Notes: generated by a model not told the origin, from the letters alone. Positions 6,035 through 41,629 are shown, counted from the stretch's first letter. The stretch is 58,501 bases of DNA from an uncultured Anaerolineales bacterium (GCA_964437445.1 CAYTGR010000009.1:1-58501); one strand, 5' to 3'. Numbers and translations: made by a program.

Positions 6035-7699
6035 ATGGGCTTTGTCCTGCTTGTGGAGCTGGTTCTGGCGTTGGGATTGGTCTTAATCCTGGGATTCAGA
6101 TTGGAGAAGTGGCGCGGCGCGCTGGCACTGGCCGAGTACACGATCCTGCCGTTGGTCGGGCTTCTGGTAGTCATGGTATTAGCCTGGCAGCTCTGGGACA
6201 TTTTCCCCCTCCACCAAATCCCGGCTGCCAATTGGCTCCCCTTTAACTATGTGGGGATGACCCTACTGGTCATGGAGATCTCTCTCTGGACCCTGGTCTT
6301 GAGTGCCTTGATCGGCTATTTCTTCAACGGCCGCATGGGGGCCTGGCTGCTCACCGACAGCTGGATCCTGCCCATCCCCACCTTCACGGTGCTCCTCGGC
6401 ATTGGCTTAGGCTGGCTGGGGATCTCGCAGAGCGGCCTGCTGATCGTGCTGGCGGCCCTCGGCGTCGGCTGTCTGACCACCTGGCTGACCACCACCTTTG
6501 CCAAAATCAAGCGCGTCTGGCCCTTCCTCGCCGTCTGGTTGACCTTTTATCTGTTCTGCGTAGCCGGCTATGCGGTAGCCGGGCGCATAGGCCTGCTCCT
6601 CCTCACCCTGCCGGCGCTGGCACTCTTTTTCTACCTGCTTTACACCTACGCCGGCCTCATCCTGCCCTCCGAACCGGACCAACAGCGAGATATTTTCCAG
6701 AGTTTGCTGACCTTTGGCCTGGGCACCAACTACCCTTTCTACCTGGTGGATGATTGGAAGACCCAGGCCCACAAAGACCGGGCTTTTCCGCCACCGCGCG
6801 TGGCCGGCAACCCCTTCGGGCAATTCCTGTCCGGGCCGGGGATCATCCTTAACGATTGCAACCATGTAGCCGTGGTCTATGAAGCCAACCGCTACCGGCT
6901 GCTGCCCCCTGGCCTGAACTTCACGCGCCAGTATGAACAATTCCACACCGCCGTAGACCTGCGCCCGCAGCTGCGGATCACCACCGTGGAGGCGGAGACC
7001 AAGGATGGCATCGTCACTAAAACCCTGGTTTTCATGCCCCATCGCATCCAAAACGGCGGGCATGAACCCCAGCTGGGGCAATCTTATCCCTACGACCCTG
7101 AAGCCATCCTCAAAGTCATCAGCCAACAGGCGATAGTAGAACACCGCTGGCAGCGCGACCCGCAGGGCGTCGCCAGCGAAGAGCTCCAGCCCATTCCCTG
7201 GGACGAACGGGTCGTTCCGGTGGGTACCGCCGTGCTAAAAGAGCTCATCGTCCAGTATACCTGCAACGAACTCCACACCCCCGGTGATCCGCGCGTCAAG
7301 ATTGCCGACGCTTTCCGCAGCCAGCTACGCCAGCGGCTCCCGGCCCTGGGGATTGACCTGGTGGGCGGCGGGCTCAGCAACATCAAACCTCCCGAATCGG
7401 TGGAACAACAGCGGATCGCCAACTGGCAGGCCAAATGGAAAAAGCGCATTGAGATGGAGATCGGTCTGACTGAGGCCGAGATCACTCGCCAGTTAGAGAA
7501 AGTCTGGCCCGAAGTGCAACTGGATATTATCAGAGAACTGGCCCAGATTCTGAGCCAGGCGGGCACTGTGAAAGATGACATGTTGGCATTGCAACTGGTG
7601 GAGTCTTTGGGTGCCATCCCGCCCAAAGAGGCCTCCGAGCCCAGCCAACCGGAAATCCCCTATGGCTTCCTGCGCGCCCTGATGCGCCGGGGGCGCTAA
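6035..7699 (+). CDS. Polytopic membrane protein with a C-terminal divergent SPFH/band-7-like domain and a coiled-coil tail. It is a paralog of the next gene.
   Basis: About 6-7 N-terminal TM helices. The segment GPGIILNDCNHVAVVYEANRYRLLPPGLNF..FHTAVDLRPQLRITTVEAETKDGIVTKTLVFMP aligns with the SPFH core of the downstream paralog (G-P-x-G-hh-L..N-x-V-V..L-x-PG..F...E-x-F..AVDLRPQ...T-x-DGI). A C-terminal helical or coiled region follows. Confidence 0.5.
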   Translation: MGFVLLVELVLALGLVLILGFRLEKWRGALALAEYTILPLVGLLVVMVLAWQLWDIFPLHQIPAANWLPFNYVGMTLLVMEISLWTLVLSALIGYFFNGRMGAWLLTDSWILPIPTFTVLLGIGLGWLGISQSGLLIVLAALGVGCLTTWLTTTFAKIKRVWPFLAVWLTFYLFCVAGYAVAGRIGLLLLTLPALALFFYLLYTYAGLILPSEPDQQRDIFQSLLTFGLGTNYPFYLVDDWKTQAHKDRAFPPPRVAGNPFGQFLSGPGIILNDCNHVAVVYEANRYRLLPPGLNFTRQYEQFHTAVDLRPQLRITTVEAETKDGIVTKTLVFMPHRIQNGGHEPQLGQSYPYDPEAILKVISQQAIVEHRWQRDPQGVASEELQPIPWDERVVPVGTAVLKELIVQYTCNELHTPGDPRVKIADAFRSQLRQRLPALGIDLVGGGLSNIKPPESVEQQRIANWQAKWKKRIEMEIGLTEAEITRQLEKVWPEVQLDIIRELAQILSQAGTVKDDMLALQLVESLGAIPPKEASEPSQPEIPYGFLRALMRRGR

Positions 7700-7747
7700 G
7701 CTGCCCCCCGAACCACTAACTTTGAATGCCAGACTTTAAGGAGAGCC

Positions 7748-9031
7748 ATGTTCAATCTCAAACGTTACCTGGACTTTGAACAAGCGCGACTGCGCAAGCG
7801 GCTGCCGTTCCTGGCGTTGGGGTTGCTCTTGCCGCTGCTGGCGCTGCTGCTGGCCGGGCCGGAACGTTGGAGTGGGATGTTAACGCCGCCAGGGTTGCTC
7901 TTCTGGTTGTTCGTGGCGTTGACTCCCCTCCCGCTGGCCGCCTGGCTGGCCCGGCAGCTGGTCATCCGTTTTATCAGCGCCTTCTATGGGATCAACCGGG
8001 AAAGCGCAGCCGAATTTCTGACTCACCGCTGGGTGGGCCAGCGGCCCAGTTTTCTGCCTTTCGTCATGGTCAAAGAAGGAGCGCTGGCCGGCGGGAAACC
8101 AGCGCCGCAGAAAATCGGCGGGCCAGCGGGCCTGGTACTTTACCAGTATAACGCCGTAGTGCTGGAAAAGGCCGGACAGCTGACCAGAGTCGTTTCAGGG
8201 CCTAAATTCCTGGAGCTGGAAGCGTTTGAGAAAGTCTGGGCGGTGATTGACCTGCGCCCCCAACGGTGGGTCTTTTCCGTCAGCGCCATCACGCAAGACG
8301 GTATTCCGATTGAGTACGACGCCGACATCCAGTTCCAGATAGGCGACGCCCAGGACGACTCGGCGGCCGCGCTGGAAGCGGCCATCTTCAAAGCGGCCAC
8401 CTGCACCTGGATCCGGGACGCCTGGCGGACCGAACCGGACCGCTTCATGAACTGGCCCAAGCGCGTCGTCATCGGCGACACTGAAGGAGCGCTGCGCTCC
8501 ATCCTCGCCCGCTTCACGCTGGATCAGCTGATTGAGCCGGCCCAGCGCGAGCTGGTCCGCCAACAGCTGGAGACCAGCCTGCGCGGCTCGGTGCCCCGGT
8601 TTGGCGTGAAAATCTTGAATGTCGCCCTGCTCAACTTAAAGTTACAGGGCAAGATCATTGATAGCTGGTTTGAGGCCTGGCGCGCGGAACGGACCCGGGT
8701 GATGCAGACGGAGCTCGCCCAAGGCGCTATGGCGCGTACCCTGGCGCTGGAACGGGCCCGGGCCGACGTCCGCCGCGAAATTCTGCACAAGACCGCGGAG
8801 ACCTTCAAAGAGCTGGCGGCCCGGTATGGTGAGGCCACCCCCGAAACCATGGTCATTCTGAGCTGCATTGAGGTCATTAAGCGAACGGCGTTTGACCTGA
8901 ACGTTTTCCTGCCGGCCGACATCCTACGTACCCTGGAAACGGTCAGGGCTACGATTGATGACAATAGCACGGATGCTGACAATGGCACGAAATCAACAAC
9001 CACCGATGATATGATCTCCTTTGCCCTGTAA
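7748..9031 (+). CDS. SPFH/band-7 (stomatin/flotillin-like) domain membrane protein
   Basis: N-terminal TM hairpin. LVLYQYNAVVLEKAGQLTRVVSGPKFLELEAFEKVWAVIDLRPQRWVFSVSAITQDGIPIEYDADIQFQIGD matches the SPFH core (compare HflK ..TKDGLSVTVDAVVQYRITD). A flotillin-like C-terminal coiled coil is present. Confidence 0.6.
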   Translation: MFNLKRYLDFEQARLRKRLPFLALGLLLPLLALLLAGPERWSGMLTPPGLLFWLFVALTPLPLAAWLARQLVIRFISAFYGINRESAAEFLTHRWVGQRPSFLPFVMVKEGALAGGKPAPQKIGGPAGLVLYQYNAVVLEKAGQLTRVVSGPKFLELEAFEKVWAVIDLRPQRWVFSVSAITQDGIPIEYDADIQFQIGDAQDDSAAALEAAIFKAATCTWIRDAWRTEPDRFMNWPKRVVIGDTEGALRSILARFTLDQLIEPAQRELVRQQLETSLRGSVPRFGVKILNVALLNLKLQGKIIDSWFEAWRAERTRVMQTELAQGAMARTLALERARADVRREILHKTAETFKELAARYGEATPETMVILSCIEVIKRTAFDLNVFLPADILRTLETVRATIDDNSTDADNGTKSTTTDDMISFAL

Positions 9032-9102
9032 TGCCCTGTAAGTGCCATGTAAATTTTGTCATCACGCGCGCGCAAGAGGGAAAATAGCGAAAGGGACATG
9101 CC

Positions 9103-10257
9103 ATGCCACCACCGGTGCAACGGCAAACCTACGCTGCGGGCGAAATTATCCTGCGGCGCGGGGTGCGCGGCCCTTTTTCCTGCCTGGTAGAAACCGGTGA
9201 AATTCAGCTCCTGTACCAAACGCCGGGCGGACGTTCCCGCGTGGTGATTTTGCACCCCGGCGAGCGTTTGGCGCTGGGTGACCACGCTATCAGTGCCGCC
9301 ACCCTCCAGGCCCGCCTGCCGAGTGTCCTTCAGGTCTCCAGCCGGGCCGCCGCCGGCAGCGGGCCGCGGCCGGTGGTCCAGCGTGTGCCGTCGCCCCCCG
9401 CGACCTGGTTCTGGATGAGGCTGGGGCTGGCTCTGGGCCTGCTCGCGCTGGTGCTGCTGGCCCGTTCGCCAGGCGGGCGCGCCTTCCTGGCCGACCTGGC
9501 TTATGCGCGTGGCCAGCTTGAGCTCCGGCAAGGCCACAGCGACCGCGCCCTGCGCAGCTTCCAGACCGCTCTGACCCTGAATGCCGCGCACGCGCTCAGC
9601 TACAACGCCCTGGGCTACCTCTGGCAACAACGGGGAGCGTCAGCGCAGGCCCTGGTGGCCCTGGAACAAGCGGCTCGCCTGGATCGTCATTCAGACGTGA
9701 TTCAGAATAACTTAGGCGTGGTTTGGGCCACGTTGAATCAAAGCGACCTGGCCCTGGCCGCGCTCCAGCGGGCCGCGGAGCTGACTCAGGCCGCGCCAGA
9801 GGTCTACGTGAACCTTGGTGATTGCTACCTGGCCCGCGCGGACTGGCTCAATGCCGGACGTGCCTACCGCGAGGCGCTGCGGCTGAACCCCAAACTGGCC
9901 GTGACGCATCACAATCTGGGTGCGGTCTACTACCATCTCCACCAGCCAGACCAGGCCGTCGCAGAGTTTAAGGAAGCGCTCTGGCTCAAGCCGGACCTGG
10001 AGGCCGCTCACGTGGGATGGGGGATCGTGGCCTTTGAACAGGCGGATTTCACCACAGCCCAAGCGGCTTTCCAGCAAGCCGTGGAATTAAATCCGCAGGA
10101 TGCCCTGGCGCACTTCTATCTGGGACTGGTCTACAAAAGCACCTCCTCCCCGGCCCTCGCCGTGATTGCCTTTGAGCGCGCCTTAGGTTTGACTTCCGAT
10201 CCCGCCCTCCACGCTCAGGCGGAAGCCTACTTGAAGGAACTGTGGAGTCTGCCCTGA
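9103..10257 (+). CDS. TPR-repeat protein with an N-terminal cupin/cNMP-binding-like beta-barrel segment and one TM helix
   Basis: The N-terminus AAGEIILRRGVRG..LVETGEIQLL..GERLALGD resembles cNMP-binding or cupin strands. A TM helix (WFWMRLGLALGLLALVLLA) is followed by about 7 TPR repeats (repeated motifs A-x2-Y-x2-AL-x-L-NP). Confidence 0.7.
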   Translation: MPPPVQRQTYAAGEIILRRGVRGPFSCLVETGEIQLLYQTPGGRSRVVILHPGERLALGDHAISAATLQARLPSVLQVSSRAAAGSGPRPVVQRVPSPPATWFWMRLGLALGLLALVLLARSPGGRAFLADLAYARGQLELRQGHSDRALRSFQTALTLNAAHALSYNALGYLWQQRGASAQALVALEQAARLDRHSDVIQNNLGVVWATLNQSDLALAALQRAAELTQAAPEVYVNLGDCYLARADWLNAGRAYREALRLNPKLAVTHHNLGAVYYHLHQPDQAVAEFKEALWLKPDLEAAHVGWGIVAFEQADFTTAQAAFQQAVELNPQDALAHFYLGLVYKSTSSPALAVIAFERALGLTSDPALHAQAEAYLKELWSLP

Positions 10258-10876: not shown

Positions 10877-13800
10877 GTGATGAGGCCATCTCCCATCCTG
10901 TTACGCCCCCGGCATCTCTGGCGGATTCTGGGGACGGTGCTCCTGTTGAGTCTGACCGTCACCGCGTACCAGCTGACGCGGCCGGTGAACCTCACCTGGG
11001 AACCGGTGGCGGGGCCGGCGGGGAGCTACGTGTGGACGGTAACAGTAGATCCCACCACACCGGAGACGCTCTACGCCGGCCTCAATGCCGGAGGCGTCTA
11101 CAAGAGCACCGACGGCGGCCTGACCTGGCAACCCCAGAATGCCGGGTTGCAAAGCCTGGAAGGCGCGCGTACGGGCGTGGAACATGCGCTGGACGTGCGG
11201 GACCTCCTGCTCAGCCGCGCCCACCCTGGCACGCTCTACGCGGCGACCTGGGGCGGTGAGGGCCTCTACGCCAGCACCGACGGCGGAGCATCCTGGGCCC
11301 CGGAGTTCATGGACGTTTGGAGCGGCGATCCGGCCGACAGCGAGCAACTCGTCAACAGCCGGCGATATGTCCGGGTCCTGGCCGATAACGGGACCGATCT
11401 GTTTGCCGGCACGCAAGGGGGCGTCTTCAAGCAGGTCATGGGCGAAGACGGGCCGGCCTGGCAGCCGGTTGCACTGAAAGGGGCCAACCGCTCAGTGCGC
11501 GCCCTGGTGATCCACCCCACCTACACCCAGACAGTCTACGCCGCGACGCTGCAAGCCGGTATCTTCAAGAGCAACGACGGCGGACTCTCCTGGCAACCCC
11601 AAAACGTCGGTCTGGAAAGCGCAACGGCCCGCGCGGTCAACGCCCTCGTCCTGGACCCGGCGCAGCCGGCCGTCCTGTACGCCGGGACGTGGGGCGCTGG
11701 CGTCTACCGCAGTTCCGACGGCGGAGCGCACTGGTCGGCCTGGAACGACGGACTGCCGCCAGAGGCTTTCGTCTGGTCGTTGCTGCTGACGCCCGATGGC
11801 ACGCTCTTCGCCGGGCTGCGCTCCGGCGGAACCTTCAAACGAGCAGGCCAGGGTGAATGGCAGCCGGCGGCTTTCCCTTACAGCGCCCTGACCCTGAGCC
11901 GTGATCCGCGCACCGGCGCGCTCTACGCCGGCACCTGGGGCAGCGGCCTCTTCCGCGACACCACCGGCCAGGATGGCACGTCGGAGGCCTGGCAAGCCCT
12001 GGGGTTGCCGGCCAACCTCCCGCTCCGGCTGCGGGCCGCAGTGGTGCGCGGGCCGGCTCCCGGCACCCTCTACGTCGCCACCGACAGCAACGGTATCTAC
12101 GCCAGCCCGGACGGCGGTCGGCACTGGGAACGGCGCAGCCAGGGTCTGACCGGTCCGGGGCTGATGGTTCAGACATTAGCCGTGGGTTCCGACGGGCAAA
12201 CGCTATATGCCGGGACGGGGGCCGGGCTTTTCGTCAGCACCGACGGGAGCCAATGGCAGCCCCTCGGCGCAGCCTCAGTCAAAGCGGCGGCAACCCCGGA
12301 GCCGGCGACGCCCTCCCCTGAATCTGAGGAACCACCCCCCACCGGAGCCATTTCCATCCTGGCGCTGGCCGTAAACCACACCGCCCCGGACGGCGACATC
12401 GTATACGCCGGGACGCCAGAGGGCCTGTGGCGCTTTGAGACCGGCCAGCGGCAGGAGATCGTCGCCTCCGTCCTGAAACCGGAGACGGGCCTGGTGCCGG
12501 CAGTGCTGATCCAGGAGCAGACCATCTATGCCAGCGTGTGGGGAGAGGGGTTGCGCCGCAGCAGCGACGGGGGACAACACTGGCAACCCGTGCTGTGGGC
12601 CTCGGACGTTCTGACCGGGGCCGAAGAGACGCCGCGCTATATCCAGAGCCTGGCGCACTCCGCGCGGCGCTGGTGGCAGGGAGGCGGGCCGCAATTGTAC
12701 GCCCTGACCGAATACGGCCTGTATGGAACTGCCGGCCGGGATAGCGCCGGGTGGCAGCTTCTCTACCCAGGGGCAGCCGGCACGCTAACCGTTGACCCCC
12801 GTCACCCGGAGGTGGCCTACGTGGGCCTCCTCACCACCACTGTGGCCGCTGAGTTTGCCCCCAGCGCAGTCTTGACTCCGACCTTTGGCGTCCTGGTGAG
12901 CCTGAACCATGGTCAACGCTGGGCCAACGCCGGCGCGCTCGCGGAGCGGCCGGCGGCGTTAGTGCGCGACCCTTACGATCCGCAGCGGATTTTCGCGCTG
13001 TCGGCCGGCGGCGCGCTTTACCGGGGGCAAGTCAGGTTGCCCTGGCTGCCCGGTGACGTGCTGAACGGGTGGCTGCTCGCTCTCCTCGGCCTGTTCCTGC
13101 TCGTGGTGATGCCTTACGGCTATGGCTATCTCCACTGGACTTATGACCTTTCACCTGCCCAGATCGCCGGGGTCGCCCTCCATCCCGATCTGTTGCGCCG
13201 GCTGTGGAGCCCACGCTTCCAAAATCGGCTCAAACCGCTGGAGAAGGTGATCCTCACCGCCGTGGACCGGCCCAGCTTCAGCCTGGTAGAAATCTGGGAG
13301 CAGCTGCGCGCGCTCGGTGCCCCGGCCTCGCACTCGCAACTGGTGGAAGCGCTCAAAGACCTGCAGGACCTGGGTCTCCTGAAGGAAGAGGACGAAACCT
13401 TCCGCTATGTCGCGCCGGGCTTACAGCGGGTGGCCGCCGTGGAGTTCCAACCCGGCCGCGAAGCGCTGATTGAGAATGTGCGCGAAGAAAATCGCCTGTT
13501 GGCCGAGGTGGCGCGCTTCTTTGAGGAGGCCGGGTTTGAGGTGGGCCAGGACTTCCCCCGCCATCTGACCAAGTTTGTGCTCCTCCCACGCCGCCCCTTG
13601 TACCGGGATTACCCCCGCCTGCACGCCTGGGTCCGGGCGGAGGGGCAGCTCCAGGCCGCCGAGGTGGAAGCGCTCTGCCGCGAGCTCCGCGCGTCCGCCC
13701 CGGAACTGGTCCCGCTGGCCTTCGTCGTGGTCACCGAACTCCCCACCCTTGAGGCGCTCCAACGGCTCCGCACCTGGCAAAACCAGGTACGGTTGATTTT

Positions 13801-14848
13801 GCTGAGTGCCTGTACCATCCGCAGCGCGTTGCGAGAGCACTCCGCGCTGCGTGATCTGGACCTGCTGGTCCAGCAAGAGCGCGGCAAGGCCGATCTTTAC
13901 GACATCCGTACCCCCATCGTGGATCCGCTGGACTTCTATGGCCGGCAACCGGCCAGGGCCGCCCTGGCAACCGCCTGGAGTCAAACTCCCTGCGTGGATC
14001 TATGGGGACTGCCGGGCGTGGGGAAGACTTCATTCCTCTGGCACTTGAAAGAGACGTTGCCCGGCCCGGTAGTCGCCTACGCCGACCTCGCCTACGGCTG
14101 GCAGGGTGAGGCGCTTTTCCAGGAGCAGCTCCTCGCCGACCTGAGCAGCGATCTGCGGCTGAAGTACAACATCTTTGTGGAAACCCCGCCCGGGGCCTTT
14201 GAGACACGGCTGGCAGCCTTGCTGTCAGCAGTTCCGGCCCGCAGTATTCCCCGCATTGGGCTGCTGCTGGATGGCGCTTCAGCGGGCAACCCCGAGCCCT
14301 ATCAGGCCCTGGCACGGCTGCGCCATTTAGCCGGGTCACACCCCGGTCTGGCGCTGGTCGTGACCTGGCAGGATTCCATCGTGACGGGCGCGACCTGGCA
14401 GTCGTTGGGGCCTTTGGATGAGAAAGAGAGTGCCGAGCTGCTGACTACATCAGGCATTCAGTTAGGCCTGGAATTCACACCCGAAGGGCTGGCGGCGCTC
14501 TACCGGGAAACCGGCGGTCATCCCCGGCTCCTGCGCCAGCTGGGCAGCGCGCTATTGCGGCAGCTACCGGACCGTTCGCCGGCGGAACCTGTGACGATCA
14601 CGGCGGCGAGGGTTGAAGCGGCGCTACCCGATTACAGACCGGTGCGGGAGGACTACTTCGCAGACCTCTGGCGGTGGTGGGTTCCGGCACAGCAAGCCAC
14701 GTTGCGCACCTGGTCCACCTTGACCGGCGAGGACCAGGCGCGCCAGCTCACCGATGATCCCGGCCTGCGCGCCTTCCTGGAAACGGCGCCGACCCTGGCG
14801 GCTTTGTTCACGGCCTGGCTCCGCGCAGCTTCAGAAGCATTGCCATGA
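10877..14848 (+). CDS. Giant single-pass membrane protein with an extracellular multi-BNR (Asp-box) beta-propeller region, a TM helix, a cytoplasmic wHTH-like and unassigned alpha/beta segment, and a C-terminal P-loop AAA+ ATPase (archaeal-ATPase/PF01637-like, GGHP motif)
   Basis: N-terminal signal anchor. At least 8 Asp-box repeats (STDGGLTW, STDGGASW, SNDGGLSW, SSDGGAHW, SPDGGRHW, STDGSQW, SSDGGQHW, NHGQRW) within about 700 aa. TM helix NGWLLALLGLFLLVVMPYGYGYL. Cytoplasmic part with Walker A DLWGLPGVGKTSF, Walker B RIGLLLDGAS, and a sensor-like ETGGHPRLLRQLG. Confidence 0.75.
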   Translation: MMRPSPILLRPRHLWRILGTVLLLSLTVTAYQLTRPVNLTWEPVAGPAGSYVWTVTVDPTTPETLYAGLNAGGVYKSTDGGLTWQPQNAGLQSLEGARTGVEHALDVRDLLLSRAHPGTLYAATWGGEGLYASTDGGASWAPEFMDVWSGDPADSEQLVNSRRYVRVLADNGTDLFAGTQGGVFKQVMGEDGPAWQPVALKGANRSVRALVIHPTYTQTVYAATLQAGIFKSNDGGLSWQPQNVGLESATARAVNALVLDPAQPAVLYAGTWGAGVYRSSDGGAHWSAWNDGLPPEAFVWSLLLTPDGTLFAGLRSGGTFKRAGQGEWQPAAFPYSALTLSRDPRTGALYAGTWGSGLFRDTTGQDGTSEAWQALGLPANLPLRLRAAVVRGPAPGTLYVATDSNGIYASPDGGRHWERRSQGLTGPGLMVQTLAVGSDGQTLYAGTGAGLFVSTDGSQWQPLGAASVKAAATPEPATPSPESEEPPPTGAISILALAVNHTAPDGDIVYAGTPEGLWRFETGQRQEIVASVLKPETGLVPAVLIQEQTIYASVWGEGLRRSSDGGQHWQPVLWASDVLTGAEETPRYIQSLAHSARRWWQGGGPQLYALTEYGLYGTAGRDSAGWQLLYPGAAGTLTVDPRHPEVAYVGLLTTTVAAEFAPSAVLTPTFGVLVSLNHGQRWANAGALAERPAALVRDPYDPQRIFALSAGGALYRGQVRLPWLPGDVLNGWLLALLGLFLLVVMPYGYGYLHWTYDLSPAQIAGVALHPDLLRRLWSPRFQNRLKPLEKVILTAVDRPSFSLVEIWEQLRALGAPASHSQLVEALKDLQDLGLLKEEDETFRYVAPGLQRVAAVEFQPGREALIENVREENRLLAEVARFFEEAGFEVGQDFPRHLTKFVLLPRRPLYRDYPRLHAWVRAEGQLQAAEVEALCRELRASAPELVPLAFVVVTELPTLEALQRLRTWQNQVRLILLSACTIRSALREHSALRDLDLLVQQERGKADLYDIRTPIVDPLDFYGRQPARAALATAWSQTPCVDLWGLPGVGKTSFLWHLKETLPGPVVAYADLAYGWQGEALFQEQLLADLSSDLRLKYNIFVETPPGAFETRLAALLSAVPARSIPRIGLLLDGASAGNPEPYQALARLRHLAGSHPGLALVVTWQDSIVTGATWQSLGPLDEKESAELLTTSGIQLGLEFTPEGLAALYRETGGHPRLLRQLGSALLRQLPDRSPAEPVTITAARVEAALPDYRPVREDYFADLWRWWVPAQQATLRTWSTLTGEDQARQLTDDPGLRAFLETAPTLAALFTAWLRAASEALP

Positions 14849-14949
14849 CAAATTCAACAACGGAGTAAAACGGGGCCAACTTCAGTTTGCCCTCTAAGAC
14901 GCAAACGAAAGTTTGCGCCACCTTGATCAGCGGAAGGACGTTGGCAATC

Positions 14950-17292
14950 ATGACGGATGCTGGCTACGATTTAGAATTCTGTCGCCCCTGGATCCAGTGC
15001 CGCCTGGGGCAATTAAAACAGACCTGCCGCGACTTTTTGACCTCGCAGGAGGGCGGGCGGTTCTATGCGCTGTTGGGCGGGCCACAGAGCGGCAAAACGG
15101 TGTTGCTGAACAGCATCCAACAAGACCTGATTGTAAACCAGCGTTCGTTGCCGGTGCTGATTGACCTGGCCGAGCAGGTCGGCGCGTTAGCTTCGCCCCC
15201 CGACTTCTTCAAGCTGATCTTCCAGGAGATGCGCAGCCAATTGGGCATCTGCTACATCGCGCCCGAGGAAACGGCGCGTCTGTTCCAGGATCCCCGCGCC
15301 ACGTTACTGGATTTCAAGCAGGCCTTCGGCTTCATCGCCCAGAATCCGCAATCTAAAGTCCAGGGTAAACGGTTCGCGCTGCTGTTGGATAATGCCGACG
15401 GACTGGCCGCAGCGCCTTTTGCCGCCGAGCTGTTCAACCATCTGGTCACGCTCTTTTCCAACCTGACTTACATCACCTCGGTCACCCGCCAGCTGGACAT
15501 TGTCCTGACCGGCGGCGTACCGCTCTACAACCGCCTGGCCGAGACCCGCTTTGCCCGCCGCGATCAGCTGCAACGCTATCACCTCACGGTGCTACCGGCA
15601 GAGGCCGTTGAGGCCCTGCTCGCCACGCTGCCGGCGCTCACAGACCAGCCGGCGCTCAGCCAAACGATCTGGCGCTACACCGGCGGTCACCCCTACCTGC
15701 TGCGCCACTTCCTGGGAGAATTGGCGGCTCAGACCGCTCACGCCGAGCCGCTCACCGCGGAACTGATAGAACAAATTGCCTCTGCCAGCCTGGACGAGCT
15801 GAGCGCCACCGGGCGCTGGTTCCACGCCTGCGCCCAGACCTTAGCCGCCCAGGGAGCAGAGCCCATCTATGCAGTGCTGGCCGCCGGCCAGCCGCTGGCC
15901 TGGCCGCAGATCAAAGAGGCCATCGCCAGGCAGAGGCTGGGAGACCCTGCCGTGTGGCGCGACCCGGCCGCCGTAGATCGCGCCTTAGACACGCTGCTAT
16001 TTCATGGCATGATCCAGACCGTGCCCCAGGCCGGCGCCACCGGCTACGCCGTCACCGGGGAGCTGTTCCGCCGCTGGTTTGCGGCCAACGTCCCCCCACC
16101 CGCTACCGCCGGCCGTCTTGGGGCGGGAAGCGGCCAGCCCCTGACACATTTTGAGCTGCAAATTCGCATCGGCCCCCAGGATTTAACCACCCAGGTTTAT
16201 CCGGTGGAAGCTTGGCTCAAGGACGGCAGCCATTTTGAGGACAGTGCTTTTCAGCTGGATGAAGCGCGGCTACAAGCCGCGGAGAACGACCCGCAGGAGT
16301 ATGGCCTGATCCTGTATGACACCTTGTTCACAGGGCCAATCCTCCGCGCCTACGACAAAGCGACGACCTGCGCAGAGACCCAAACCGGCGGGCGGTTGCG
16401 GCTCCGGCTCTGGGTGGATGACGACGCGGCCGAGCTGCACGCCCTGGCCTGGGAACGCTTACATCACCGGGTCCAGGGAGCCGCGGTGCCGGTGGCAGCC
16501 TCCGCCGAGCTGCCCTTTTCACGCTACATTGATCTGGAAAAACCGGAACCGTCCCCCATCGCCGAACGGCCCATCCGGCTGTTATTGGCAGTCGCCAACC
16601 CCGCCAATCTCAGCCAGTTGAACCTCGCTACCCTGAACGTAGAGCAGGAAATCACGACCCTGGTGGAAGCCTGGGGCGATCTCCAGCAGAGCGGGCAGCT
16701 CCAGGTCACGCTACTGCCGGGGCGGACTGGCCTCTCCGATGCCGTGCGGGCCCAATTGGCAGGGGCGGGCTACCGCATCCAGGATGGCGTCACCAGCACC
16801 GAGGCACTCATCCGCTTGCTTTCGCAGGGCGCGGGGTACCATGTGCTGCACTTCGTGGGGCACGGCACGTTCAGCCGCCAACGCCAGCAAGCTATGCTCA
16901 TCTTTGAGAATGAAGCCGGCAACTCCGCTCCGGTTAAGGACGAGCAACTGGCAACGCTGTTGAATTCAACCGGCTCGCAGCTACGGCTGGTCTTCCTGGC
17001 AGCCTGCGAAAGCGCGCACCGCGATCCAATGCGAGGCAACCCCTTCGTGGGGCTGGCTCCCCGCTTAGTGCAGCTGGGCATCCCGGCGGTGATTGCCATG
17101 CAGGATCGCGTTTCCATGGCGTTGGCCCGCCGGCTGGCCCATGATTTTTATTGCTCCTTGTTAGAACACGGGAGCGTGGATCGGGCGCTCAACCAGGCCC
17201 GGCTCCTGGCCTGGAATGCAGGCGATCCAGACTGGGCCACGCCGGTGCTCTTCATGCGACTGAAAGAGGGGCAGCTGTTCGGGGCAGGGTAA
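14950..17292 (+). CDS. P-loop AAA+ ATPase (a paralog of the upstream gene's C-terminal ATPase) fused to a C-terminal CHAT (caspase-family) protease domain
   Basis: Walker A LLGGPQSGKTVLL, Walker B RFALLLDNADGL, YTGGHPYLLRHF (same GGHP motif as the upstream gene). CHAT domain with catalytic His in YHVLHFVGHGTF and Cys in LRLVFLAACESAH. Start taken at ATG 14950 (MTDAGYDLEF, GGAAGGA SD). The track TTG at 14887 is an alternative. Confidence 0.8.
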   Translation: MTDAGYDLEFCRPWIQCRLGQLKQTCRDFLTSQEGGRFYALLGGPQSGKTVLLNSIQQDLIVNQRSLPVLIDLAEQVGALASPPDFFKLIFQEMRSQLGICYIAPEETARLFQDPRATLLDFKQAFGFIAQNPQSKVQGKRFALLLDNADGLAAAPFAAELFNHLVTLFSNLTYITSVTRQLDIVLTGGVPLYNRLAETRFARRDQLQRYHLTVLPAEAVEALLATLPALTDQPALSQTIWRYTGGHPYLLRHFLGELAAQTAHAEPLTAELIEQIASASLDELSATGRWFHACAQTLAAQGAEPIYAVLAAGQPLAWPQIKEAIARQRLGDPAVWRDPAAVDRALDTLLFHGMIQTVPQAGATGYAVTGELFRRWFAANVPPPATAGRLGAGSGQPLTHFELQIRIGPQDLTTQVYPVEAWLKDGSHFEDSAFQLDEARLQAAENDPQEYGLILYDTLFTGPILRAYDKATTCAETQTGGRLRLRLWVDDDAAELHALAWERLHHRVQGAAVPVAASAELPFSRYIDLEKPEPSPIAERPIRLLLAVANPANLSQLNLATLNVEQEITTLVEAWGDLQQSGQLQVTLLPGRTGLSDAVRAQLAGAGYRIQDGVTSTEALIRLLSQGAGYHVLHFVGHGTFSRQRQQAMLIFENEAGNSAPVKDEQLATLLNSTGSQLRLVFLAACESAHRDPMRGNPFVGLAPRLVQLGIPAVIAMQDRVSMALARRLAHDFYCSLLEHGSVDRALNQARLLAWNAGDPDWATPVLFMRLKEGQLFGAG

Positions 17293-17299
17293 CGCTGCG

Positions 17300-18034
17300 C
17301 TATTTGGCGGGTTTGGCGACGACGTAGATCCGGTGAGTATAGGTCGCGTAGGGCCAGCAGGAAACCAATGTCAACGTCTCATCCGGCGTGCGGGCCACGT
17401 AGGCGGCGTGCCTGGCCCGGTCGGCCTCGCTGGCCCCGACGGCCAGCACCAGATCTTTAGCCTGCACCACATACTTGAATTCCTTGTCCAGCGTGTAGAG
17501 ATAGATCTCGTCGCCGGGCTCCAGCTGGTTCAGGTCGCGGAAGACCTCTCCCAGCGTATTGTTGTGCCCGCTAAGCACGATGTTGCCCGGTTCCCCGGGG
17601 TCAGCGCTGCCCTCATGGTGGCCCACGGCATAGGCGGGCGTTTCCCAGAGATAGCGCGTGTTTTCCCCGCTGCCGGTCTGGATGATACTGATCTCGATGA
17701 TCTTCGCGTTGACCCCAATCTTGGGAATGATAATGCGGATGGCCGGCAACGGTTGCACTTCGGGCAGGGGAGTGGGGGTTGGCGAGGGCGCGGGTGTCGG
17801 CAAGGGCGTGAGCGTCGGCGTCAGGGGCGGGATGTCAAACCCGGCGATGCGTCCGGACATCAGGTATGGCTTCTGGCCGTCCAACCAATCGTAGAAGCCG
17901 GTGTAAGCGGCGTAAAGGACGAGCCAGATCAGAATCCCCAGGCTCGCGATCAACACTAATGTGCTCAACCGGCGTTGGGTTTCCGGGCTCAAGCGACCTC
18001 TTCCCCCTGAAGCCAGATTTAATCCCTTTGCCAA
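17300..18034 (-). CDS. Sortase-family transpeptidase (class E/F-like)
   Basis: N-terminal TM anchor and Pro/Thr-rich linker. Catalytic motifs are His in IVLSGHNNT, Cys in TLTLVSCWP (the TLxTC motif), and Arg in RIYVVA. Confidence 0.8.
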   Translation of the reverse strand: MAKGLNLASGGRGRLSPETQRRLSTLVLIASLGILIWLVLYAAYTGFYDWLDGQKPYLMSGRIAGFDIPPLTPTLTPLPTPAPSPTPTPLPEVQPLPAIRIIIPKIGVNAKIIEISIIQTGSGENTRYLWETPAYAVGHHEGSADPGEPGNIVLSGHNNTLGEVFRDLNQLEPGDEIYLYTLDKEFKYVVQAKDLVLAVGASEADRARHAAYVARTPDETLTLVSCWPYATYTHRIYVVAKPAK

Positions 18035-18126
18035 CCACCCGGCGGCTTTAAGTAAAGTAGCATGGTTTGGTCAAATTGTCCAGCCGTGGCATGGCGGATG
18101 CCTTCATACTTCGTGAGGATTTTCTC

Positions 18127-18155
18127 TTGCCCTTTCGCCTGCTCAAGAGTACAAT
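18127..18155 (+). promoter_or_regulatory. sigma70-like promoter (TTGCCC-N17-TACAAT) for the SHMT-GcvT fusion gene
   Basis: ttgccctttcgcctgctcaagagtacaat. A ~95-nt 5' UTR precedes the GAAAGGAG SD. Confidence 0.45.
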
Positions 18156-18251
18156 ACCCTTAGACACCCGATAGCTACACGCTAACCCGGTGGTCGTCAC
18201 GCTAAACTCTCCGGTGAAAGACCGGTTATTGCACTACGAAAGGAGCTCTGA

Positions 18252-21200
18252 ATGGACGATTTTCTCTTCCGTGAACCTTTAGCCCAATTGGACCCCGACC
18301 TGGCCGCGCTCATCGGCTACGAGGCCGAACGGCAGGCCCGGCGGCTGATCATGATCCCCTCTGAATCGCTGGCCTCCCCGGCCGTCCATGAAGCGGTCGG
18401 GTCTGTCTTCTCGCACCTCTACGCCGAGGGCTACCCCGACGAGGAAACCCGCACGATGACACCGGCGGCACTCCTGGATTACGAAGAACGGCTGGGCCAC
18501 TACCGGCGCTACTCCGATCCCCGCTACTACAAGGGGATGGACTACGTGGACATCCTGGAACCGCTGGCCCGCCGTCGCGTGGCCGAAGCCTTCGCCACCT
18601 CCAAATTCCCCGCCGAAAAGCTCTTCGTCAACGTGCAAACGCTCTCCGGCGCGCCGGCCAACACCGCCGTGCAGTATGCCCTGCTCCAGCCCGGCGATAC
18701 CATGCTGGCGATGGCACTCCACGTCGGCGGCCACCTCAGCCACGGCAGCAAGGTCGCCTACTCCGGTAAAACCTACAACGTCGTCTACTATTCTGTGGAC
18801 GAGAAAACCGAGCGGCTGGATTACGAGGCCATCCGCGCCCTGGCGCTGGAGCACAAGCCCAAACTGATCATCGGCGGCTACACTTCCTATCCCTGGGCAC
18901 CCGATTGGGAGCGGCTGAAGGCCATCGCCAAAGAGGTCGGCGCCTACCTGCTGGCCGACATCGCCCATGTCGCCGGCCTGGTGATCGCGGGCGTCTACCC
19001 CAGCCCGGTCGGCATTGCCGACGCCATCACCTTCACCACCCACAAGACCTTTGACGGCCCGCGCGGCGCCGTCATCCTCACCACCGACGCGGCGCTGGCG
19101 AAGAAGTTTGACCGCGCGGTCTTCCCCGGCTTCCAGGGCGGCCCGCACATGGAGACCATCGCCGGCATCGCCGTCGCCGCCCACCTGGCGCGCACCGAAC
19201 AGTTCCGCGCGCTGCAACAGCAGACCGTCGCCAATGCCCAGGCTTTCGCCGCCGCGCTGGCACAGGCCGGTATCCGCGTGGCCTACGGCGGCACCGATAC
19301 GCACATGGTGCTGATAGATTGCAAGCCGATCAAAGGGCCCGATGGCACGCCGTTGATGGGCGATGCCGCCGCCCGGCTGCTGGAACTGGCGGGCATCGTC
19401 GCCAACCGCAACACCATCCCCGGCGATACCACCGCCGCCTACCCTTCGGGTGTCCGCTTTGGCACCCCCTGGATCACGCAGCGCGGGATGAAAGAACCGG
19501 AGATGGCGCAGATCGCGCAGGCCGTCGCCCGACTGCTCAAGGCCACCCAGCCCTACAAACTGGTCACCCGCGACGGGCTGGAATATCGCGCCCGCGTGGA
19601 TTTTGACGTGCTGGAAGCGGTCAAAGTGGAGATCGCGGCCCTGGCCGCCCGCTTTGACCCTCAGCCTCCCCAGCGGAGCGGCTACCCGCACTTCTATTTC
19701 ATCAACGACGCCCCGCAAGGGCAGGCGGCCTACGAGCGGCTGGAACTGGAAGGCCGCTTAGCGCGCGCCTTTGTGGAATGGCTCACCCCCTCCTCTGTGA
19801 CCGACATGGCCGACGGCGACAGCCGCCCCATCACCCTGCTGGAGGCCAACGGCGCCGTGATGGCTGCCGGGCTGCTCACCCGTTGCGCCGCCGACCGCTA
19901 CACGCTGGACCTGCCGACCGCGCAAGCCATCCGCGTCGCTACCTGGCTACGGGCGCTGGTAGAAGGCTACGTCGCCACCGATGACGTCTACGGACGGCTG
20001 CCTTTCATCAAGGCGGTGCGCGACCTGGGCGCGGCGCCCACCCCGGCCGTCGCCCCGCAACCCGAGACCGGGCCGTTTACCAAGCCCTACTTCATCGGCG
20101 CCTGGTCACACCGTGAGCCCGCCGGGTCGGCGCTGCCCAAATTTGAATGGCGCGAGCCGGAGAACGCCCCGCTGCGCAAGACCCACCTCAACGCCGTCCA
20201 CCGCGAGATGGGCGGCCGAATGGTTCCTTTCGCCGGCTGGGAGATGCCCGTCTGGTACAGCGGGGCGCTGGAAGAACACCGCGTCGTCCGCGAGGCCGCC
20301 GGTCTCTTTGATGTCAGCCACATGGGTTGCTGGGAAGTCAGCGGGCCGGAAGCCGCCACCTTCCTCAACCTGGTCATGGTCAACGACATCAACCTGCTGG
20401 AGGTAGGCCAATCCCAATACTCCGCCTTCTTTGACGTAGAAGGTATCCCGCTGGATGACCTGATGGTCTACCGGCTGGCCCCAGAGCGCTACCTGGTGGT
20501 GGTCAACGCCTCCAACAACGATAAAGATTGGGCCTGGGTCAACGCCGTGGCCCGGGGTGAGGTGATGATAGATCCCCATCGCCCCTGGGTCAAGTGGAGC
20601 GGCGCCGGCGTCACGCTGCGCGACCTGCGCGACCCGGCGGCCGGGGCCGACATGCGCGCCGAACTGGCGCTGCAAGGGCCGAAGTCTAAGGACATCCTGC
20701 TGGCGCTGGGCGGCAGCGCCGGCGACCTGGGGCAGGTCAAGGCGCTACCCTGGGCCGGCATCTGCCAGGTGACTTTAGGCGGCTTTGATGTGATCGTCAG
20801 CCGCACCGGCTACACCGGCGAGCGGGTGGCCTACGAGCTCTTCGTGCACCCCGACCGCTTAGCCGACTTCTGGTGGGCGCTGCTCAAGGCGGGCGAGCCG
20901 TTCGGCATCAAACCCTGCGGGCTGGCCGCGCGCGACAGCCTCCGCACCGAGGCCGGGTTGCCGCTCTACGGCCACGAGATGGCCGGGCCGCTCAATCTGA
21001 CGATGGCCGACGCCGGGTTTGGCACCTATGTCAAGACCTACAAACCGTTCTTCGTGGGCCGCGAGCCGTTCATCGCCCGCGAGGCGAAACGCAAGGCCGA
21101 AGTGACCCGCTTCCGCATCCCGGAGAAGGGGCTGCCCAAGCCAGAACAGCTGGACCGGCTGGTAGATGCCAAGGGGAAAGTGGTCGGACAGGTCCTCAGC

Positions 21201-21407
21201 TGCGCGGTGGACATTGACGGCTTCCTCTTGGGCCAGGCTTATCTGGACAAAGAATACCACGCCGAGGGGACCCAGCTCTTCGCCCTGGTCACGCCGCGCC
21301 GCGCGCCCAAAGCGCTGGATCAGCTCAAAGCGGGCGATAAAGTCCAGCTGCCCGTGCCGGTAGTCGTGCTCAGTCGCTTCCCCAAGAAACCGGCAGCGAA
21401 GAAGTAA
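18252..21407 (+). CDS. Fusion protein: N-terminal serine hydroxymethyltransferase-like PLP enzyme, plus a C-terminal GcvT-family (aminomethyltransferase-like) folate-binding domain
   Basis: The N-terminal ~430 aa align with SHMT (IPSESLASPAV, YAEGYP, LHVGGHLSHGS, PLP-Lys in FTTHKTFDGPRGAVI) with an insertion replacing the GKRYYGG loop. The C-terminal ~400 aa carry GcvT motifs (TPLRKTHLNAVHREMGGRMVPFAGWEMPVWYSGALEEHRVVREAAGLFDVSHMGCWEVSG). Single 1051-aa ORF. Confidence 0.8.
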   Translation: MDDFLFREPLAQLDPDLAALIGYEAERQARRLIMIPSESLASPAVHEAVGSVFSHLYAEGYPDEETRTMTPAALLDYEERLGHYRRYSDPRYYKGMDYVDILEPLARRRVAEAFATSKFPAEKLFVNVQTLSGAPANTAVQYALLQPGDTMLAMALHVGGHLSHGSKVAYSGKTYNVVYYSVDEKTERLDYEAIRALALEHKPKLIIGGYTSYPWAPDWERLKAIAKEVGAYLLADIAHVAGLVIAGVYPSPVGIADAITFTTHKTFDGPRGAVILTTDAALAKKFDRAVFPGFQGGPHMETIAGIAVAAHLARTEQFRALQQQTVANAQAFAAALAQAGIRVAYGGTDTHMVLIDCKPIKGPDGTPLMGDAAARLLELAGIVANRNTIPGDTTAAYPSGVRFGTPWITQRGMKEPEMAQIAQAVARLLKATQPYKLVTRDGLEYRARVDFDVLEAVKVEIAALAARFDPQPPQRSGYPHFYFINDAPQGQAAYERLELEGRLARAFVEWLTPSSVTDMADGDSRPITLLEANGAVMAAGLLTRCAADRYTLDLPTAQAIRVATWLRALVEGYVATDDVYGRLPFIKAVRDLGAAPTPAVAPQPETGPFTKPYFIGAWSHREPAGSALPKFEWREPENAPLRKTHLNAVHREMGGRMVPFAGWEMPVWYSGALEEHRVVREAAGLFDVSHMGCWEVSGPEAATFLNLVMVNDINLLEVGQSQYSAFFDVEGIPLDDLMVYRLAPERYLVVVNASNNDKDWAWVNAVARGEVMIDPHRPWVKWSGAGVTLRDLRDPAAGADMRAELALQGPKSKDILLALGGSAGDLGQVKALPWAGICQVTLGGFDVIVSRTGYTGERVAYELFVHPDRLADFWWALLKAGEPFGIKPCGLAARDSLRTEAGLPLYGHEMAGPLNLTMADAGFGTYVKTYKPFFVGREPFIAREAKRKAEVTRFRIPEKGLPKPEQLDRLVDAKGKVVGQVLSCAVDIDGFLLGQAYLDKEYHAEGTQLFALVTPRRAPKALDQLKAGDKVQLPVPVVVLSRFPKKPAAKK

Positions 21408-21430: not shown

Positions 21431-21478
21431 AGAGCGCGCTTCAGCGTGAGCAAGACTGAAGCGCGCTCTTTCTCGTGT
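21431..21478. terminator. Bidirectional terminator hairpin between convergent genes
   Basis: Perfect 14-bp stem AGAGCGCGCTTCAG-cgtgagcaaga-CTGAAGCGCGCTCT, followed by TTCTCGTGTTCG on the plus strand. Confidence 0.6.
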
Positions 21479-36285: not shown

Positions 36286-36330
36286 GGTAAACCTCCTGAT
36301 AAGAAAATTTGTTTTTTTATCACAAAGTAG

Positions 36331-36359
36331 TTGACTTGTACCAGAAAATCTGGTATAAT
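36331..36359 (+). promoter_or_regulatory. Consensus sigma70 promoter with extended -10 (TTGACT-N17-TGgTATAAT) upstream of the LacI-family gene
   Basis: ttgacttgtaccagaaaatctggtataat. The palindromic operator at 36409-36422 lies in the 5' UTR. Confidence 0.6.
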
Positions 36360-36408
36360 AAGTACCGGTAACGAAACGGAAAAAATCCGTTTTTTTTAAG
36401 CCATCAAT

Positions 36409-36422
36409 TGGGAGCGCTCCCA
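36409..36422. promoter_or_regulatory. Perfect 14-bp palindrome TGGGAGCGCTCCCA, a putative LacI-family operator between divergent GH130 and lacI-family genes
   Basis: Perfect dyad centred on AGCGCT. The same GGGAGCGCTCC core recurs at 37542-37553 and 37700-37710, upstream of the ABC substrate-binding gene. Confidence 0.55.
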
Positions 36423-36440
36423 GATATTATAGCATATAAC

Positions 36441-37502: not shown

Positions 37503-37536
37503 AAAAAACCTCGTAGAGGGGATTGTTTTTTACGTT

Positions 37537-37551
37537 GCGCCGGGAGCGCTC
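37537..37551. promoter_or_regulatory. Operator-like half-palindrome GCGCCGGGAGCGCTC (copy 2)
   Basis: The same 15-mer recurs at 37695-37709. It shares the core with the 36409 palindrome. Confidence 0.4.
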
Positions 37552-41627: not shown

Positions 41628-41629
41628 CC

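Follow-up and report, generated by a model that had tools for sequence, protein, structure and literature searches.

A single gene in DNA of an uncultured Anaerolineales bacterium was found to join an SHMT to a T-protein, and we consider it probable (roughly 65%) that its product is a bifunctional SHMT/T-protein served by separately encoded H, P and L proteins, with the two activities coupled through shared methylene-THF (CH2-THF). In the stretch analyzed (58,501 nt, referred to as the window), the gene forms one open reading frame on the plus strand, which starts with ATG, runs for 1051 codons and has no internal stops. A sequence-only reading of this DNA had put forward that an SHMT and a GcvT-fold domain are joined in one polypeptide; this fusion proved genuine, being backed by Pfam and NCBIfam matches and conserved over many genomes. 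Between the two catalytic modules lies a third part, designated T', which is the remnant of a second GcvT domain. The features discussed are as follows (all on the plus strand):

18127..18155, weak sigma-70-like promoter candidate TTGCCC-17-TACAAT (9/12 matches in a consensus scan)
18240..18245, ribosome-binding site AAGGAG, 6 nt 5' of the ATG (read directly from the sequence)
18252..21407, whole fusion gene, SHMT + T' remnant + T-protein (1051 aa plus stop)
18252..19541, SHMT module, residues 1-430, a fold-type I PLP enzyme (PF00464, NF000586)
18441..18521, 27-aa insertion specific to the family, residues 64-90, separating YAEGYP from RYYKG (from alignments)
19044-19046, PLP lysine K265 in T-T-H-K-T-F-D-G-P-R-G, invariant in 120/120 relatives
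19542..19661, predicted beta-hairpin and helix extending the SHMT C-terminus, residues ~431-470 (AF2)
19701..20051, T' remnant, residues ~484-600, an incomplete and degenerate copy of the folate-binding domain of GcvT, devoid of the catalytic residues
20082..20099, KPYFIG motif, residues 611-616, in which the C-terminal end of T' survives
20157..21404, T-protein module, residues ~636-1051, GCV_T folate-binding domain and C-terminal barrel
20457-20459, catalytic Asp D736, invariant in 120/120 relatives
21431..21469, candidate terminator, a perfect 14-bp hairpin (AGAGCGCGCTTCAG / CTGAAGCGCGCTCT) with a T-rich run after it

Conservation and expression signals of the fusion gene

A search of relatives, named by the sequence-only reading as a check on the fusion, recovered full-length homologs in more than 120 protein clusters at 55-98% identity. 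The scan of species-representative genomes, coming from different projects and assemblers, showed the same fusion in all 80 of the 80 best loci, and the carriers included cultured Bellilinea, Longilinea and Thermoflexus relatives. The gene is widespread in Chloroflexota; divergent fusions were found at 37-51% identity, some of them in Planctomycetota. Within the clade the full length, SHMT insertion and middle region included, was conserved with almost no gaps or changes of length. Altogether, the full-length conservation over so many clusters and the existence of divergent versions point to long-term purifying selection acting on the whole architecture.

The probability that an assembly, frameshift or read-through artefact had united separate glyA and gcvT genes is negligible. 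The colinear architecture recurs throughout the clusters and loci mentioned above, the junction is conserved and folded, and GC3 is even over the three modules (0.83-0.85). The conservation data refute such an artefact and exclude misassembly whether or not separate glyA and gcvT genes exist in the genome, so the presence of such genes has no bearing on the question. A 479-aa ORF on the opposite strand (18279..19718) was disregarded as a shadow ORF of G+C-rich coding DNA. Database labels of the fusion genes vary between "GcvT", "SHMT" and even "sarcosine oxidase alpha", and no description of a natural SHMT-GcvT fusion was found in a full-text search of the literature lying outside subscription journals.

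The near invariance of M1, D3, L5 and F6 among the relatives indicates that the start codon was assigned correctly. The promoter noticed in the sequence-only reading is present as a promoter-like candidate of weak match. Rfam scans, run on 17950-18350 with E <= 10 and on the entire window with the gathering thresholds, revealed no glycine, THF or ZTP riboswitch in the leader of ~95 nt. Downstream of the gene, the hairpin between the convergent genes is indeed perfect, as had been claimed. Its loop of more than 8 nt exceeds the limit of the hairpin scan, hence it was missed there. The 81-nt stretch folds at -33.5 kcal/mol, with z = -1.56 relative to shuffles, which is ordinary for DNA as G+C-rich as that of the window; the fold energy thus does not single it out, and we regard it as a candidate terminator.

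Two catalytic modules and an eroded GcvT domain

The N-terminal module matched PF00464 at E 1.4e-117 (393 bits, the Pfam cut-off being 27) and NF000586 with 432 bits, above the curated NCBIfam cut-off of 335. Solved SHMTs matched it at E 7e-98, and in Foldseek the AF2 model of the module gave a target-normalised TM-score of 0.90 with E. coli SHMT (1dfo). The assignment of the PLP lysine to the THKTFDGPRG motif was borne out, the residue being K265. The active site was mapped via alignments to solved SHMTs, using the roles in substrate carboxylate and THF binding that we take the E. coli residues to have. The equivalents of S35, Y55, E57, Y64, Y65, L121, G125, H126, L127, D200, H203, K229, R235, N347 and R363 were invariant in 120/120 relatives; the set comprises the four positions singled out in the sequence-only reading (Y65, E57, H126 and R363), all of which are kept. 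The SHMT module of the fusions bears three substitutions throughout the family, with S in place of N37, A in place of S99 and K in place of G66.

These data contradict the earlier view of a divergent SHMT with an altered substrate loop, since every PLP, substrate and folate residue tested was invariant. The idea of a non-serine substrate is likewise without a basis in the sequence, the catalytic and ligand residues being unchanged. The insertion, described before as 30 aa replacing the substrate loop, comprises 27 conserved residues located just N-terminal to that loop, which is retained as R91-Y92-Y93-K94-G95. It breaks every SHMT alignment into two stretches and occurs in all divergent fusions, the Planctomycetota version included. 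Its residues R67, L75, L81, R85, R86 and D89 show little or no variation among the 120 relatives, and its pLDDT in the AF2 monomer model is low. At the other end of the module, AF2 predicted two strands (E432-439 and E442-449) and a helix (H451-467) with pLDDT of 84-97. This extension is conserved (RARVDFDVLE) and is covered by the model of the long SHMT subfamily, NF010094 (PRK13580), whose cut-off of 735 bits was not reached by the window protein (284 bits).

The C-terminal module matched PF01571 (GCV_T) at E 1.7e-82 with 277 bits (cut-off 25.6). It passed the equivalog cut-off of TIGR00528 by a narrow margin (249.9 bits vs 235.85) and stayed slightly under that of NF001567 (279.8 bits vs 300). 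The best solved relative was the B. subtilis T-protein 1YX2 (E 6e-65). D735, D736, N752, E857 and R894 were invariant in 120/120 relatives; the last four correspond to D97, N113, E195 and R223 of the E. coli T-protein, i.e., the catalytic Asp and the folate site. As to the contacts with the H-protein, the equivalent of K288 is a lysine in 114 of the 120 relatives and an arginine in the other 6, and the equivalent of R292 of the E. coli T-protein is variable (M in 81, K in 13, R in 11). PF08669 was not reported in the window protein at E <= 0.01 and was weak or present in several relatives; for the C-terminal barrel region, AF2 predicted beta strands at 949-1040 with pLDDT of 80-93.

The module had been described before as of the GcvT/DmdA/DMGO-C type. 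Only the GcvT part of this description held: TIGR00528 was passed, and DMGO and the other members of that class were far under their cut-offs. The scores were 66.7 bits vs 410 for DmdA (NF009133), 156.5 vs 1164 for soxA (TIGR01372), 136.9 vs 1100 for TMAO demethylase (NF053776), 34 vs 800 for DesA and 29 vs 580 for LigM. Since the module scored as a true T-protein, aminomethyl-H-protein is its expected substrate, rather than free formaldehyde to be captured. Of the channelling claimed earlier, the sharing of methylene-THF is kept as the most plausible reason for joining the two enzymes; the capture of formaldehyde finds no support.

The same evidence makes it very unlikely that an SHMT-like aldol cleavage of a non-serine substrate supplies formaldehyde or another one-carbon unit to a GcvT-like module that traps it with no H-protein, in the manner of DMGO, sarcosine oxidase or DmdA. 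Such an external trap would not be needed by a module whose SHMT ligands are invariant and whose own folate site is complete, and the equivalog cut-off was passed for the T-protein and for none of the trapping enzymes scored.

The region between the modules, taken before for a linker of ~200 aa, is a conserved folded region instead of a tether. It is an eroded second GcvT domain, left over from a duplication of the T domain and no longer catalytic. In some relatives T' is full-length, and in the window protein one lobe and a short motif are left. The motif, KPYFIG, aligns with the KPFFVG that closes the folate-binding domain of T and, in relatives with a complete T', that of T' as well; K611 and G616 do not vary, and P612 and Y613 hardly do. 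Further invariant residues of T' are W565, R567, L569 and D578. The top structural matches of T' were the GcvT-fold proteins of the DMGO, DMGDH, sarcosine oxidase alpha, TMAO demethylase and DmdA class. For the full chain, AF2 predicted one compact structure with mean pLDDT of 85.8 and pTM of 0.78.

The decay of T' bears on another explanation, in which both modules are active and the fusion serves only co-expression and 1:1 stoichiometry, with neither kinetic coupling nor hand-over, T' being a leftover spacer. It accords with the visible loss of T' from a full-length domain to a lobe and a motif, and with the identity of ~0.5 in the middle region, under the ~0.7 of the catalytic modules. To our knowledge, physical channelling has not been demonstrated for GDC and SHMT of plant mitochondria, where the coupling is functional, and this was counted in its favor. 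Against it stand the invariant residues in T', in the SHMT insertion and in the hairpin extension, as well as the almost constant length within the clade. The confident fold predicted for the middle domain and the pTM value would also favor a fixed arrangement over beads on a string. On balance we regard co-expression alone as rather unlikely.

It is highly improbable that one module is catalytic and the other acts as a sensor of folate or amino acids, comparable with the non-catalytic GcvT-fold proteins YgfZ and IBA57. In its favor, a GcvT-fold domain of this family, T', is already dead, and in one divergent relative (P0153) both the PLP lysine and the YAEGYP motif of SHMT are gone. However, neither module shows any change of its catalytic residues in the window protein and in 120/120 close relatives, which is not expected of a sensor.

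Genomic setting and proposed function

Neither gcvH nor gcvP nor lpd adjoined the fusion in about 90 loci inspected, and the window has no gcvH or gcvP anywhere. The context survey of 80 loci combined clustering of flanking ORFs, a regular expression for the lipoyl motif of the H-protein, and tblastn for second copies of SHMT and GcvT. It revealed no conserved gcvH/gcvP/lpd operon and no second SHMT or GcvT copy nearby. The fusion gene is solitary amid housekeeping genes, in contexts unrelated between genomes, as expected of a core one-carbon enzyme. The contexts of the divergent and Planctomycetota fusions provided no informative neighbors.

Some neighbors recurred in the Anaerolineaceae clade and were absent from the window: a class I/II aminotransferase directly downstream (35 loci), an alpha/beta hydrolase upstream (about 20 loci) and fmt within 8 kb (27 loci). 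Being lineage-specific, they were read as shared synteny and rejected as functional evidence.

The KO table of Thermoflexus hugenholtzii, which covers roughly 70% of the genes, contains a gcvH-gcvPA-gcvPB cluster without gcvT, DLD, one glyA, and no entry for K00605 (gcvT). The listed glyA is followed by two genes without KO and then by K01622, and the fusion of Ca. T. japonica has the same gene order; on this ground we consider the listed glyA the syntenic ortholog of the fusion. At this coverage of the genes, the table is suggestive of a missing gcvT in Thermoflexus. The paper on T. hugenholtzii predicted no de novo phosphoserine/serine pathway and predicted that serine is made from glycine. 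The H and P genes of a genus that carries the fusion, with no T gene adjoining them, also argue against the trapping of formaldehyde by an H-protein-free module.

For the bifunctional SHMT/T-protein, the following scheme may be proposed. The N-terminal module, presumably dimeric like bacterial SHMTs, would act as a normal THF- and PLP-dependent SHMT (Ser + THF <-> Gly + CH2-THF). The C-terminal module would catalyze the reaction aminomethyl-H-protein + THF <-> CH2-THF + NH3 + reduced H-protein, with its partners, the H, P and L proteins, presumably encoded at other genomic sites. The fusion would ensure 1:1 stoichiometry and hold the enzymes side by side, with T', the SHMT insertion and the C-terminal hairpin possibly forming a structural bridge that fixes the relative position of the two folate sites. 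CH2-THF from one site could be consumed at the other, which would return THF for a further round, the net reaction being 2 Gly + NAD+ + H2O -> Ser + CO2 + NH3 + NADH. The SHMT/T pair could also operate backwards or as part of the reductive glycine route. On that route, and in serine cleavage, the two modules work on the same side of CH2-THF, so proximity would bring no gain from channelling. We infer both activities, the H-protein dependence, the passing of folate from site to site and the direction taken in the cell; the passing of folate is pure conjecture.

A stronger version of the scheme, which we consider unlikely, envisages a closed conduit built of the SHMT dimer core, the insertion, the hairpin and T'. 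One tightly bound (polyglutamylated) folate would shuttle in it between T and SHMT, and two glycines would be turned into serine on this catalytic folate. The conduit would be an adaptation of folate-scavenging Chloroflexota devoid of the phosphoserine pathway, and the fusion would be the sole glyA and the sole gcvT. Such a conduit, if real, would be the first case in nature of folate being channelled between SHMT and the glycine cleavage system.

For one-carbon units, the two central ways into folate metabolism are SHMT and the glycine cleavage system. Photorespiration, glycine fermentation and the reductive glycine pathway engineered for formate/CO2 assimilation all depend on the coupling of the two. 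It is debated whether methylene-THF passes directly between the T-protein and SHMT and how a tethered T-protein can still dock the H-protein; the fusion, natural, ancient and widespread, offers a ready-made test system for both questions. T', traceable among relatives from a full-length domain to a remnant, clearly illustrates the reuse of a duplicated catalytic domain as a scaffold. The Thermoflexus KO table names the fusion ortholog glyA alone. KO-based reconstructions give the fusion one function only, hence the glycine-cleavage capacity in Anaerolineae is probably under-called.

Comparison with known systems

The SHMT module shares the fold, the TTHK motif and ~40-50% identity with bacterial GlyA (E. 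coli 1DFO, B. stearothermophilus 1KKJ), and differs from it in the 27-aa insertion before RYY, the hairpin/helix extension of ~40 aa and the covalently attached T' and T. The match to the long SHMTs of NF010094/PRK13580 (496 aa) reaches model position 485/496, spanning the hairpin/helix extension, and its offset implies extra N-terminal sequence in that family as well; unlike the window protein, members of the family are not fused to GcvT.

In comparison with GcvT (B. subtilis 1YX2, T. maritima 1WOO, E. coli 1VLO/3A8I), the catalytic and folate residues and the K288 equivalent are kept, whereas the R292 equivalent is unconserved. The T module is not free-standing, its N-terminus being joined to T', and has no gcvH/gcvP operon around it; relative to the B. 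subtilis T-protein it carries an insertion of ~22 aa at about residues 775-797.

The layout in which a catalytic domain that generates one-carbon units precedes a GcvT-fold THF domain is shared with DMGO (1PJ5), DMGDH (4PAB), sarcosine oxidase alpha (2GAG), TMAO demethylase (9Q5A) and DmdA. In the DMGO-type enzymes the GcvT-fold domain traps an iminium or formaldehyde with no H-protein, and the fusion scores far under their models. It also differs from them in that the partner is itself a folate enzyme and that there are two GcvT-fold units, one of them dead.

In plant mitochondria, where photorespiration converts 2 Gly to Ser, and in glycine-fermenting anaerobes, GDC and SHMT share the CH2-THF/THF pool. 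The net chemistry proposed for the fusion is alike, but the enzymes are separate in those systems, and here they are united in one chain with a pseudo-enzyme as the spacer.

The fusion gene and its family

Both halves of the fusion protein scored far beyond chance. Pfam recognized SHMT (E 1.4e-117) and the GCV_T folate-binding domain (E 1.7e-82), and the NCBIfam models for the SHMT subfamily (NF000586) and the gcvT equivalog (TIGR00528) reached 432 bits (cut-off 335) and 249.9 bits (cut-off 235.85), respectively. Among 5.8 billion proteins searched, more than 120 full-length homologs of approximately 1040–1060 aa and 55–98% identity were found, all with both domains and, where the source was named, originating from Anaerolineae, Chloroflexi, or Thermoflexales. 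With each GTDB species represented by a single genome, scanning gave at least 594 candidate stretches; the best 80 were without exception colinear full-length fusions, and they include loci from several Thermoflexus species and from two cultured organisms, Bellilinea caldifistulae GOMI-1 and Longilinea arvoryzae KOME-1. The family alignment is nearly gap-free throughout, also across the junction. Hence the fusion, for which a junction artefact had been considered, is genuine and shared by relatives.

Features of the fusion gene and its product
18127–18155, + strand: candidate promoter-like site (9 of 12 consensus matches)
18252–21407, + strand: uninterrupted fusion ORF of 1051 codons (sequence translation)
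21431–21469, + strand: perfect 14-bp hairpin, then a T-rich run (sequence)
Residues ~431–470: beta-hairpin and helix extending the SHMT C-terminus (AF2 model)

The promoter-like site and the perfect hairpin claimed in the sequence-only reading were both present, the folding energy of the latter being unexceptional for such G+C-rich DNA (z = -1.56). The ATG is preceded at 6 nt by an AAGGAG ribosome-binding site, and the start codon is correct, since the N-terminal residues are nearly invariant among relatives. No riboswitch was detected in the gene leader. GC3 is uniform along the gene (0.83–0.85).

The T' domain between the two modules

For the entire protein the AF2 model was confident (mean pLDDT 85.8, pTM 0.78) and placed a folded alpha/beta domain with pLDDT near 90 at approximately residues 494–595, between the SHMT and the C-terminal T-protein (T) modules. 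What had been called a ~200-aa linker therefore holds a domain, which is also homologous to T: BLASTP aligned it gap-free with the core of the T domain of the same protein (E 8e-4), and profile–profile comparison with T family alignments gave a probability of 96.4% (E 1.3e-9, 97 columns), against 0.1% for the control SHMT profile. The catalytic Asp pair and Asn are replaced in this copy in all family members. Judged by these comparisons, the domain, designated T', is a GcvT-derived remnant.

An exhaustive phmmer search of 1.84 billion representatives with T' gave 95 matches, and all 10 checked were SHMT–GcvT fusions or their fragments. Divergent fusion members of 1064–1250 aa, one cluster of which is annotated from Planctomycetota MAGs, carry a nearly complete first GcvT domain at the T' position (hhalign probability 99.3–99.5%, E 1e-21 to 1e-23, 270–300 columns); the ancestral architecture was therefore presumably SHMT–T'–T. 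Catalytic motifs are degraded in most divergent full-length T' domains. In the window lineage, T' is eroded to one lobe (~484–600) and the terminal KPYFIG motif (611–616).

One divergent member of 1090 aa (P0153) retains the Asp-Asp and Asn motifs in T' and has a degenerate SHMT module in which neither the YAEGYP motif nor the PLP lysine remains (partial Pfam SHMT match, E 2.5e-18). The module that was inactivated thus seems to differ between lineages.

Active-site residues of the two modules and a possible coupling

The SHMT module aligned with solved bacterial SHMTs (E 7e-98) in two pieces because of a 27-residue insertion (residues 64–90) between YAEGYP and RYYKG, and its predicted structure superposed on that of E. 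coli SHMT (target-normalised TM-score 0.90). The substrate loop, earlier read as replaced, is kept: the insertion precedes the tyrosine-containing RYYKG loop, and R91, Y92, Y93, and G95 do not vary. The residues corresponding to E. coli S35, Y55, E57, Y64, Y65, L121, G125, H126, L127, D200, H203, T226, H228, K229, R235, N347, and R363, whose roles are known from SHMT structures, are identical in 120/120 aligned relatives, so a divergent SHMT with an altered site was not borne out. Four residues of the insertion (L81, R85, R86, and D89) never vary, and two more, R67 and L75, are kept in 119/120. Even the most divergent fusions retain the insertion, so that it is a family feature under selection.

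The best solved relatives of the C-terminal module were genuine T-proteins (top match B. subtilis 1YX2, E 6e-65), with much weaker matches to TMAO demethylase, sarcosine oxidase alpha, and DMGO. As the DmdA, SoxA, TMAO demethylase, LigM, and DesA models all stayed far under their own cut-offs while TIGR00528 was passed, the module is of T-protein type and not the mixed GcvT/DmdA/DMGO-C type first proposed. D735 and D736 (the catalytic Asp pair), N752, E857, and R894 are invariant; of the H-protein contacts, the K288 equivalent is conserved and the R292 equivalent is not. The fully canonical SHMT site and the T-protein character of the C-terminal module both speak against an H-independent formaldehyde trap acting on a non-serine substrate, the model of the sequence-only reading, which we now regard as very improbable.

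We infer, with a probability of about 0.65, that the fusion is a bifunctional SHMT/T-protein; the same inference extends to both activities, dependence on H-protein, hand-over of folate, and the direction. The SHMT active site is built with residues from both subunits, so the SHMT module probably dimerises in the usual way. The hairpin extension and the T' remnant, perhaps together with the insertion, would then position one T module per chain. T would make CH2-THF from aminomethyl-H-protein; SHMT would use it with a second glycine to form serine, THF going back to T, and the pair would be reversible. The main rival, in which both activities are real and kinetically uncoupled, seems to us rather unlikely. 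Extensive folate auxotrophy is predicted in Chloroflexota (PMC13408713), which suggests, speculatively, a selective reason for sharing a scarce cofactor between fused sites.

Genomic context, partner proteins and known enzymes

In the window the fusion gene has a sortase gene on one side and a convergent CitMHS/TrkA_C transporter gene on the other, and the 58.5 kb contain no other one-carbon or glycine-cleavage genes. Within 10 kb of the fusion, none of the 80 related loci had gcvH, gcvP, or a second copy of SHMT or GcvT.

Other features of the window
6035–10257, + strand: two SPFH/Band-7 proteins in tandem (554 and 427 aa), then a TPR protein whose N-terminus weakly matches a cyclic-nucleotide-binding domain
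10877–17292, + strand: possible NTPase–protease pair of signalling or defence type: a 1323-aa protein that combines BNR/Sortilin-type repeats with an AAA_16 (STAND-like) ATPase region and, immediately after it, an 801-aa protein whose N-terminus is AAA-like and which carries a CHAT (caspase-like protease) domain
35314–43538: GH130 beta-1,4-mannooligosaccharide phosphorylase (- strand), LacI-family regulator, and five-gene Opp/Dpp-type ABC transporter; probable mannoside-utilisation cluster
43624–45648 (674 aa) and 57865–58497 (210 aa), both - strand: ORFs with no Pfam match at E <= 1e-5
47164–56945, - strand: run of three GAF-rich genes for histidine kinases or hybrid kinases, the product of one having 1652 aa with dCache, HAMP, about six GAF, HisKA, and HATPase

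Recurrent neighbours were limited to the more distant Anaerolineaceae clade (52–56% identity to the window protein). In 35 loci among L033–L088 (e.g., L049 13229–14458; L059 9010–9852) the gene for a 409-aa class I/II aminotransferase (MocR-AT/LysN-like) lies 5–330 bp downstream on the same strand, and in approximately 20 loci of this clade an alpha/beta hydrolase (Hydrolase_4) gene lies upstream. The three genes may form a lineage-specific operon there; the aminotransferase and hydrolase genes are absent from the window. The fmt gene for methionyl-tRNA formyltransferase, another folate enzyme, lies within ~8 kb in 27/80 loci (e.g., L001/L002 20702–21661), probably by inherited synteny rather than as an operon because distance and orientation vary. 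In the closest long-contig relative (L007, 80% identity) L-serine dehydratase alpha and beta genes lie ~2 kb upstream (6405–7968, - strand), a single occurrence that fits a glycine–serine–pyruvate route.

For Thermoflexus hugenholtzii, a reconstruction has been published with a KO table, and the part of it examined covered ~70% of genes (PMC8129789). It places gcvH, gcvPA, and gcvPB adjacent, flanked by genes without KO, and lists a DLD gene; in this portion there is no entry for K00605 (gcvT) or for serA, serC, and serB, and a single glyA, followed by two genes without KO and K01622 (PMC8129789). In Ca. Thermoflexus japonica two small ORFs come after the fusion gene, and next to them a PF01950 FBP aldolase/phosphatase. 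The downstream gene order thus matches, which identifies the T. hugenholtzii "glyA", within the portion examined, as a syntenic ortholog of the fusion. The organism is predicted to be unable to make serine or phosphoserine de novo and to obtain serine from glycine (PMC8129789). Altogether, these partial data fit, indirectly and in a relative 56% identical to the window protein, a T-protein supplied by the fusion with H, P, and L encoded separately.

The public database names of the fusion proteins are single-function (GcvT, SHMT, or sarcosine oxidase alpha), and no description of a natural SHMT–GcvT fusion was found in the full-text literature searched, most subscription-journal papers lying outside its scope. 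SHMT and T-protein are individually textbook enzymes; what is new is their covalent joining, together with the conserved insertion in SHMT, the pseudo-T' domain, and how broad the family is.
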